This document shows positions 14,149-57,727 of a DNA stretch of 64,000 nt, piece by piece. A program made the position numbers and the translations under genes. The notes below the pieces were generated by a model that searched no databases, had not been told where the DNA came from, and worked only from the letters and a program-made list of their open reading frames with translations. The stretch is from Escherichia phage vB_EcoP-101114UKE3. Location of the stretch: the sequence record NC_070982.1. One strand, 5' to 3'. The first letter of the stretch is position 1, and every line of letters begins with the position of its first letter.

Positions 14149-14159
14149 ATAATGTATAT
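14149..14159 (+). promoter_or_regulatory. phage-specific promoter-like motif TAATGTATATA
   Basis: motif 36 nt upstream of ATG 14195; near-identical copies upstream of three minus-strand genes. Confidence 0.5.
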
Positions 14160-53137: not shown

Positions 53138-53464
53138 TCACCACTCCTTACCCTTTGTTGTTACAGAGCCACTACACTGTACACCACGGGAGATAAAGTC
53201 ATAACGCGACCAATCACCTTGTGTCTCCATATCACGCCCTACATAAGCCTTCTCATCAACAGCACCGCCGTTGGAACAAGAAGCACCAGCATAACGCATA
53301 TCAATTTCACCACTAGGAATCTTCTCCCCGCTGTGCCAACGGGAAACACAGACACCTTCTACCGATAATGCACACCATCCATCAGGACGATGCTGTACGC
53401 AGCCTGTAAGAGCTACACAGGCGATAAAGATACAGGTTAAGGTAATTACACCACCCCAGCTCAT
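53138..53464 (-). CDS. secreted protein/lipoprotein candidate
   Basis: signal peptide with LTGC lipobox-like motif. Confidence 0.5.
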   Translation of the reverse strand: MSWGGVITLTCIFIACVALTGCVQHRPDGWCALSVEGVCVSRWHSGEKIPSGEIDMRYAGASCSNGGAVDEKAYVGRDMETQGDWSRYDFISRGVQCSGSVTTKGKEW

Positions 53465-53601
53465 AATCCCTCCTGAAGCGCCTTACGGCGGCTATCTCGC
53501 CAAGCCATCCATAGGTAGGTTTTAAGTTCTTCTCTTTCTTCTTCGCTGAACAAAGGAGAAGTAAAGATATCATCGAACCACTCATTAAACTCAGGGGTCA
53601 T
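53461..53601 (-). CDS. small acidic protein (46 aa), replaces track ORF 53382..53585
   Basis: AGGAGG SD 4 nt before ATG 53601; TGA overlaps ATG of downstream gene. Confidence 0.35.
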   Translation of the reverse strand: MTPEFNEWFDDIFTSPLFSEEEREELKTYLWMAWRDSRRKALQEGL

Positions 53602-53740
53602 AAACCCTCCTATTTGATTTGGTGGACTATCTGGAATCGAACCAGAAGCTCACTAAGAAAGCAATTCCCACTGTTATAAAAGCACTTGCCTCAACAGGGA
53701 TACACTAACTTTGGTGCCGCACCCATACTAGCCCTAAATG

Positions 53741-53816
53741 TGGTGCGCCCTACAGGACTCGAACCTGTAACCAATAGCTTAGAAGGCTACTGCTCTATCC
53801 GTTGAGCTAAGAGCGC
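53741..53816 (-). tRNA. tRNA-Arg(UCU): tRNA-Arg (anticodon UCU), CCA encoded
   Basis: hand-folded cloverleaf: 7-bp acceptor, D arm GCTC/GAGC, anticodon loop CTTCTAA, T arm ACAGG-TTCGAGT-CCTGT, discriminator A plus CCA. Confidence 0.85.
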
Positions 53817-57489: not shown

Positions 57490-57727
57490 GACCTGAAAGA
57501 GTGAACATGACCTCACTCATTTAAGAATCCTCGTAAAGACTCTTAAAAAAGAGGCCTCGTTAAAGGCCCGGTCAAATGACCATCCAATAGGGATTGAACC
57601 ATGCCAATGATTCACAAAGGGAGTTCCCTTTAGGTATCACTAGCTACGCAAAAAGCCGCACAAAGGCGGCAGACAAAGACGCTCAAGAAGAGCGTCATAG
57701 TAGTTGACCACTGGTCCAGAAGAGGGC

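Follow-up and report, generated by a model that had tools for sequence, protein, structure and literature searches.

We examined a 64,000 nt stretch of DNA (the window) from Escherichia phage vB_EcoP-101114UKE3 (record NC_070982.1), and within it a minus-strand locus at which a transfer RNA (tRNA) gene for arginine, tRNA-Arg(UCU), is followed on the same strand by an element of 115 nt (53620-53734) that carries a tRNA-type T-arm. A 701 nt query around the locus matched record MZ234015.1 (Escherichia phage vB_EcoP-101114BS3; Kuravirus, Gordonclarkvirinae) at 100%; phages of this group (the phiEco32/SU10 group) are prolate podoviruses of 75-78 kb, and the locus sits within a long series of small co-oriented minus-strand genes. 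ARAGORN called one tRNA only in the window, the tRNA-Arg(UCU), and Rfam model RF00005 matched the same gene with 70.8 bits (E = 1.9e-13, span 53744-53816). An earlier reading of the letters without database searches (the sequence-only reading) had described this gene as a 76 nt tRNA with encoded CCA, and had named rejection of the arginine call by a tRNAscan-type search as a result that would count against it; both programs accepted the call. For the adjoining element we propose, with moderate confidence, that it is a conserved and unannotated RNA gene whose product is tRNA-like and non-decoding; the element is probably a functional mimic of a tRNA and not a dead one.

The element opens with an acceptor strand, GGGCUA, that had been overlooked earlier and that closes an exact 115 nt unit (Table 1). 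This strand pairs with the 3' acceptor strand over 6 bp (G1-C72, G2-C71, G3·U70, then C-G, U-A and A-U), G7 (53728) being left without a partner, and the helix had a pairing probability of 0.96-0.99 in the unconstrained ensemble. All six pairs were invariant, and G1-C72, G2-C71, G3·U70, A73 and CCA were the same in the 10 phages compared. U8 and A9 lead into a D-arm-like hairpin (U10-A25, G11-C24, G12-C23 and G13·A22) with GG in its loop; we regard this D-arm assignment as plausible, and the outer tRNA-like frame of acceptor, T-arm and CCA as solid. The T-arm is as first described, CUGG-UUCGAUU-CCAG at 53645-53631, except that its stem in fact has 5 bp (53646-53630); from 53646 to 53620 the order is T-arm, acceptor 3' strand, discriminator and CCA (UCUGG-UUCGAUU-CCAGA-UAGUCC-A-CCA). 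The label "tRNA-like 3' structure", also offered earlier, stands as to tRNA-like and falls as to a mere 3' structure, the element being a complete unit, closed 5'-to-3' and separated from the CCA of tRNA-Arg by 6 nt. The 3' 33 nt of the element were 91% identical to the 3' part of tRNA-Gln of Jiaodavirus phages. A 65 nt central domain, which holds the hairpin GAGGC-AAGU-GCUUU, stands where a tRNA has its anticodon arm and variable loop, and because this domain replaces the anticodon arm the RNA would be unable to decode.

Table 1. Coordinates of the proposed RNA gene, its parts and its immediate neighbours in the window.
Feature	Position	Strand	Basis
Proposed tRNA-like RNA gene, whole, 115 nt	53620..53734	-	invariant length; 28 phage records
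Acceptor 5' strand GGGCUA, pairs with 53624-53629	53729..53734	-	sequence; pairing probability
U8-A9 and D-arm-like hairpin UGGG-UGCGGC-ACCA, GG in loop	53712..53727	-	sequence; assignment inferred
Central domain, 65 nt, in place of anticodon arm and variable loop	53647..53711	-	sequence
T-arm UCUGG/UUCGAUU/CCAGA, canonical T-loop, G53-C61 pair	53630..53646	-	sequence
Acceptor 3' strand UAGUCC (53629-53624), discriminator A73 (53623), encoded CCA (53622-53620)	53620..53629	-	sequence
Spacer CAUUUA, 6 nt, from CCA of tRNA-Arg to G1 of the element	53735..53740	-	sequence; tandem-tRNA-like spacing
tRNA-Arg(UCU), type A, GCGCUCU..., 76 nt, encoded CCA	53741..53816	-	ARAGORN; Rfam
Downstream context: ribosome-binding site (RBS) GGAGGG, 53605-53610, and open reading frame (ORF) of 46 aa, 53461-53601	53461..53610	-	ORF list, record annotation

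The T-loop motif GGTTCRANYCC occurred 3 times in the 64 kb window compared with 0.24 expected; in 100 shuffles the count never rose to 3. Of the matches in the window, two fall at the tRNA-Arg/element locus. The third T-loop-like motif (GGTTCAATCCC, 57590-57600) lies on the minus strand in an intergenic region (57520-57700) that also has two terminator-like hairpins, GCCGCCUUUGUGCGGCUUUUU and GGCCUUUAACGAGGCCUCUUUUUU; it was judged a chance occurrence because no stem flanks it.

Conservation was assessed in 10 carrier phages, with the adjacent lipoprotein gene serving for comparison (its first 270 nt in the case of pairwise identity). The element was 115 nt long in 10 of 10 phages, with no insertion or deletion, and four sites varied, each by a G/A transition: 53720 (R15, G/A) in the D-arm-like hairpin, and 53711 (A/G), 53687 (A/G) and 53662 (G/A) in the central domain. 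Variable columns numbered 4 of 115 in the element versus 143 of 288 in the adjacent gene (Fisher p = 7e-22), and pairwise identity was 96.5-100% (mean 98.5%) versus 69-99.6% (mean 80.6%). All 34 modelled pairs were kept in all sequences; in every candidate fold the four polymorphisms lay in loops or exchanged a G·U for an A-U pair. The window phage was 78-80% identical to SU10, EP335, Bas90, Bas91, SR02 and TH38 over the 34-47% of 25 kb that aligned, and the block of tRNA-Arg plus element was 95.5-98% identical to that of SU10, EP335, Bas90, Bas91 and SR02, as against 70-86% for the flanking genes. In Bas91 and YF01, where an unrelated tRNA-Arg is preceded by an HNH gene, the island of high identity ran from 53735 to 53606, i.e., the element and the RBS. 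Immediately past the CCA of the element 5 of 8 positions varied among phages. The spacer depended on context (CAUUUA beside type-A tRNA-Arg versus AUUUUAAACAA beside type-B), and the A at 53735, position -1 of the element, was kept in all contexts. The element was retained beside intact tRNA-Arg of both type A and type B, and beside the rearranged tRNA-Arg of TH38 and TH42. On the evidence of these alignments the element is conserved like a structural RNA gene, as is the neighbouring genuine tRNA, and unlike decaying DNA. The few variable columns, the fixed length and the sharp conserved edges argue against a decaying pseudogene; the sequence-only reading had suggested a decayed second tRNA, which finds no support here since a neutral remnant should have decayed no more slowly than the coding sequence beside it.

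Searches for known RNA classes gave no call for the element itself. ARAGORN found no tRNA in it in default, intron or metazoan-mitochondrial modes, its search for transfer-messenger RNA (tmRNA) returned 0 tmRNA genes, and Rfam, run down to E <= 10, gave no tRNA or tmRNA match (mitochondrial tmRNA included) to 53620-53734; the earlier inability to fold a full cloverleaf around the T-arm was thereby reproduced. A tRNA with an anticodon-loop intron was considered and rejected, lowered ARAGORN thresholds yielding only an implausible "tRNA-Lys" that overlaps the real tRNA-Arg. When internal deletions were scanned, 0 of 2,115 variants of the element were called at the default ARAGORN threshold, and 1 of 2,115 was called at 95% of it, a tRNA-Ala(UGC) formed by removing 39 nt after the D-arm. 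No sigma-70 promoter or intrinsic terminator was predicted within the element. The sole mini-ORF, for a small peptide MGAAPKLVYPC, was rejected: it had 2 non-synonymous changes in 11 codons and leaves the invariant 3' 70 nt unexplained. As a candidate gp36 promoter, TAGTGTATC was likewise set aside, having 2 mismatches to the phiEco32 gp36 consensus tAATGTAtA, conserved positions included (PMC8948821).

The element was present in 28 phage records, once per genome and at 96.9-100% identity, all of them E. coli or Shigella Gordonclarkvirinae; it was annotated in 0 of the 28, and published work on these phages gives them one tRNA each (PMC9965538). Within Suseptimavirus, IME267 and the window phage are carriers versus SU7, a non-carrier; within Kuravirus, SU10 is a carrier versus SGF2, a non-carrier; EP335 (Nieuwekanaalvirus) is a carrier. 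Carriers in the BASEL collection are Bas90 and Bas91, and Bas86-88 align with a gap of about the size of the element (as judged by alignment only). Copies of CACCA border the indel in SU7, this repeat being the sequence in which both tRNA-Arg and the element end. At the sensitivity of these searches, no match to the element was found in E. coli genomes and plasmids, and three pattern scans of IMG/VR for distant homologues gave no hits. A scan of JGI metagenomes gave a single hit, upstream of a tRNA-Ser, and a scan of GTDB gave a hit inside a Marinobacter sequence where no tRNA was called; both were put down to chance.

We folded the RNA with and without constraints. The tRNA-like folds S1, S2 and S4 lay within about 2 kcal/mol of one another: S1 has a single long irregular arm capped by an AAGU loop and followed by an 8 nt linker, S2 has a 13 bp hairpin plus a small hairpin, and S4, the constrained minimum-energy fold, is a five-way junction with an anticodon-like arm. 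The energy of S4 was identical in all seven haplotypes because all four polymorphic sites are unpaired in it. The central domain may thus be modelled in several alternative ways, with no covariation to choose among them. The cloverleaf of the genuine tRNA-Arg was likewise not the minimum-energy fold in the same prediction, and because a genuine tRNA also misfolds in silico, the thermodynamic predictions and z-scores are not decisive.

Several observations nevertheless weigh against a conserved tRNA-like RNA gene. Among the 10 phages 0 pairs changed on both sides, and no helix is proven by covariation; the folding energy was not better than that of shuffles (z = -0.9 over the full 115 nt and -1.3 in the central arm); the unconstrained consensus took the form of a rod in which D-region and T-region pair with each other, at about -36 kcal/mol versus -30 to -32 for the tRNA-like folds; and the D-arm-like hairpin is not favoured in the thermodynamic ensemble. 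The acceptor and T-stem stack to 11 bp with G7 bulged, where 12 is canonical, A14 and a purine at position 37 are absent, and the candidate anticodon loops carry U37 or C33. The element is also dispensable, about three quarters of the related records being without it (104 records match the region), and in SU7, SGF2 and EK010 the RBS follows the CCA of tRNA-Arg directly. Homing-endonuclease traffic at the locus could spread a short block horizontally and so inflate the apparent conservation. Finally, no small-RNA, transcriptome or Northern dataset for Gordonclarkvirinae small RNAs was found.

On another view the element is a dead second tRNA: it would be a pseudogene, or else the scar left when a homing-endonuclease cassette entered behind the D-arm, and its uniformity would come from hitch-hiking with tRNA-Arg or from gene conversion; we consider such an origin unlikely. 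No tool calls the element a tRNA, the 39 nt whose removal brings ARAGORN to a cloverleaf lie just past the D-arm, and the resident tRNA-Arg of TH38 is interrupted by a cassette at the corresponding point, past position 26. HNH endonuclease genes adjoin tRNA-Arg in Bas91 and YF01, and many relatives are cleanly without the element. SegB of phage T4 targets the T-loop DNA sequence GGTTCRANTCC and co-converts its flanks (PMC2330249), so that endonuclease-driven conversion is a real alternative source of local homogeneity. Conversion tracts, however, would not end at RNA-gene boundaries every time, and the edges of the conserved island are sharp at both RNA ends in several independent contexts, including phages without an endonuclease gene; the element also stays when tRNA-Arg is replaced by an unrelated sequence type, and the contrast in variable columns with the adjacent gene, together with the lack of any indel, opposes a dead tRNA as well.

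It is also improbable, in our estimate, that the element works in cis or as DNA, whether as a processing or stability signal for the downstream mRNA or as the target or immunity site of a homing endonuclease. The RBS of the next gene, which begins 10 nt past the CCA of the element and lies outside the RNA but in the same transcript, is conserved along with it, and insertions recur at this place, ECBP2 having an unrelated stable rod of about 95 nt with an ACCA end at the same junction. The indel is flanked by ACCA/CACCA repeats, and T-loop DNA is recognised by the endonucleases that belong to phage tRNA clusters (PMC2330249). A processing role fits poorly with phages that do not have the element, where tRNA-Arg supplies the same RNase P/RNase E punctuation, and a role for the downstream gene fits poorly with the finding that this gene is not constant among carriers, at least three different genes having been seen. 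The near-invariance of all 115 nt is left unexplained by a protein-binding site of 9-27 bp, and no match to the gp36 promoter consensus was found.

A decoding tRNA-Ala(UGC) with an extra domain of about 40 nt between D-arm and anticodon arm, retained or processed out, is very unlikely: the one deletion variant that ARAGORN calls does have a UGC (Ala) anticodon with a 5 bp stem, a 7 nt loop and U33, in independent agreement with the alanine identity of the acceptor (G3·U70/A73), and S4 holds this same anticodon-like arm with the four polymorphic sites all unpaired, but the cloverleaf appears only below the default threshold, U37, the missing A14, two G·U pairs in the anticodon stem and a stronger competing hairpin all speak against it, the "spliced" 76-mer resembles no known phage tRNA beyond the T-arm (the same comparison by which origin from a known tRNA was rejected), we know of no splicing mechanism for such an insert in bacteria, and, above all, decoding is given a low probability because the middle anticodon base is polymorphic (53662 G/A; UGC in 4 phages, UAC in 6).

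A non-decoding tRNA-like RNA at this place has a parallel in phage T4, which belongs to the family Straboviridae as against Gordonclarkvirinae. The T4 gene order is segB (a homing endonuclease), tRNA-Arg, rnaD (119 nt) and rnaC (139 nt), so that rnaD and rnaC, like the element, come straight after a phage tRNA-Arg(UCU), and a homing-endonuclease gene is adjacent; the endonuclease genes at the Gordonclarkvirinae locus are the HNH genes upstream of tRNA-Arg in Bas91 and YF01. Both T4 products are stable RNAs of unknown role (PMC3014915, PMC9697503). Like the element, they are longer than any tRNA and non-decoding, and rnaC likewise has a canonical T-arm beside an end-pairing helix, together with a long central domain. 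The two differ in that rnaC is strongly stable in silico (z = -4.5, versus -0.9 for the element) and has neither an encoded ACCA after a clean acceptor stem nor G3·U70, both of which the element possesses. Local alignment against shuffles gave p = 0.15 for rnaD and p = 0.19 for rnaC, neither significant, and because no sequence homology is detectable we treat the element as an analogue, and not a member, of the T4 species 1 and 2 RNAs.

The tRNA-like domain of tmRNA shares with the element G3·U70, an A73-CCA acceptor helix, a T-arm and the lack of an anticodon. The strands also follow in the same order: 5' acceptor, D-region, a long helix at the position of the anticodon stem, linker, T-arm and 3' acceptor. 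In contrast to tmRNA, which is about 260-400 nt long, the element has 115 nt; it has no tag reading frame, no pseudoknots and no match to a tmRNA model; its 65 nt central domain is too short for an mRNA-like part with a resume codon; and it has a D-stem, which tmRNA does not, and an acceptor of 6 bp where tmRNA has 7. With a canonical elongator tRNA it has in common the T-arm, U8-A9, the GG of the D-loop and the encoded CCA, and it differs by its length of 115 nt and by having no anticodon arm in register. The YrlA or Y RNA-like RNAs, which some phages have, are non-coding and contain within them a tRNA-like module (T-arm plus D-arm). Their topology is reversed, however, the ends of the RNA forming the Ro-binding helix where the element has an acceptor stem with CCA. 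The YrlA model RF02553, whose gathering score is 69, gave 14.8 bits (E = 2.9), over a span (53688-53796) that is mostly the genuine tRNA-Arg.

If the element is a working mimic, its maturation could follow that of a tandem tRNA. It lies 6 nt after tRNA-Arg on the same strand, without a promoter or terminator of its own, and would be co-transcribed with tRNA-Arg as a dimeric precursor. For the 5' end, RNase P would cut at G53734, with the acceptor/T-arm helix and the 3' RCCA as its guides; for the 3' end, RNase E would cleave within AAAUCAAAU, which is A/U-rich, and exonucleases would then trim as far as CCA. The GG of the D-loop and the T-loop would then form a tRNA elbow, and the RNA would act as a tRNA mimic.

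The acceptor end bears on what such a mimic may do. In sequence it has the alanine identity elements G3·U70, A73 and CCA; G3·U70 with A73 is the established identity set of alanyl-tRNA synthetase (AlaRS) and is also used by tmRNA. Hou and Schimmel in 1988, and Francklyn and Schimmel in 1989, reportedly found G3·U70 with A73 to be enough for AlaRS, even in minihelices. The acceptor of E. coli tRNA-Ala, which we take to be GGGGCUA...UAGCUCC-A-CCA, would be the acceptor of the element with the 4:69 pair added. This tRNA-Ala-like end (G1-C72, G2-C71, G3·U70, A73) makes charging by AlaRS plausible, and we put charging with alanine forward as possible, if on balance doubtful (for recognition of G3·U70 by AlaRS see also the review PMC9976931). 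As to the role of the mimic, we can only guess that it may serve as a decoy against host defences or enzymes that target tRNAs, or may carry alanine. A fuller version, to which we attach rather little weight, is that an early-made, alanine-accepting and non-decoding mimic might serve as a minimal tmRNA-like or decoy RNA (AlaRS-charged, and engaging EF-Tu, SmpB or the ribosome), or as a sponge for a tRNA-targeting defence, one possible target being a nuclease or modifier of the acceptor end or anticodon.

Comparison of sequences indicates that the tRNA-Arg/element locus is a hot spot. In ECBP2 (JX415536.1, L014:989-1088) an unrelated insert of about 100 nt stands between the CCA of tRNA-Arg and the next RBS; it forms a rod-like hairpin of high stability (-44.4 kcal/mol, z = -4.7), ends in ...CUACCA, and was found in ECBP2 only, with no Rfam match and no occurrence in E. 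coli genomes. In TH38 (MT446410.1, L013:61-602) the 5' half of the resident tRNA-Arg (SU7 type) reaches only to position 26 (about nt 110). It is followed by an ORF-like segment in the reverse orientation (about 111-445), then a complete tRNA-Arg(UCU) of a third type (449-523), then the 3' half of a type-A tRNA-Arg from the anticodon loop on (558-602), and lastly the intact 115 nt element; the arrangement looks like a homing cassette that carries its own tRNA copy. TH42 (MT446413.1, a record marked UNVERIFIED; L011:439-594) has a D-armless tRNA-Arg(UCU)-like sequence with a long variable region (Rfam tRNA 36.4 bits, no ARAGORN call); an outer stem, GCUCUUA...UAAGAGC, encloses this sequence, and the 3' part of a type-B tRNA-Arg comes after it. 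In Bas91 (L003:1811-2233) and YF01 (L012:74-523) HNH/homing-endonuclease genes overlap, or end in, the 5' end of tRNA-Arg, which is there of a second, unrelated sequence type (GGGGCGUAGUC...); the arrangement parallels that of segB beside tRNA-Arg in T4.

The tRNA-Arg gene itself, although genuine, has no annotation in MZ234015.1 or in the original SU10 record KM044272.1, and in the EK010 record LC553734.1 it bears the note "recognized anticodon: TTC". AGA made up 13.5% (minus strand) to 29% (plus strand) of arginine codons in the long ORFs of the window, at 8-16 per 1000 codons, the plus-strand set being the richer. This usage fits the usual codon-supply explanation for tRNA-Arg(UCU); it agrees with the first remark on AGA as a rare host codon and with the YF01 paper (PMC9965538). 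Elsewhere in the window exact copies of TAATGTATA occur at 14150(+), 23271(-), 23342(+) and 29828(-). The same sequence is the published consensus of the phiEco32 gp36-dependent middle/late promoters (PMC8948821), and by this match the sites are probably the middle and late promoters of this phage. A core nucleotidyltransferase of 478 aa (IME267, L022:5624-7060, minus strand; about 35.6-37.1 kb of the window) lies between the dCTP deaminase and DNA polymerase genes, its label in some records being "nucleotidyltransferase domain of class II CCA-adding enzyme". Searches gave no Pfam or PDB sequence match to it, only phage-specific PHROG families. No link between this gene and the element emerged, the core gene being present with or without the element.

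The element would be a second RNA gene, under strong constraint, in a group of phages that are under development for therapy and represented in the BASEL collection, and it occupies the position that the species 1 and 2 RNAs have in T4. Since close carriers (IME267, 101114BS3) and non-carriers (SU7) exist, the function of phage tRNA-like RNAs is directly testable in this group, and the tRNA-Ala-type acceptor end offers a concrete biochemical starting point. Should the alanine-accepting mimic prove true, it would represent a new functional class of phage small RNA and offer a way into the puzzle, now 50 years old, that the T4 species 1 and 2 RNAs present.

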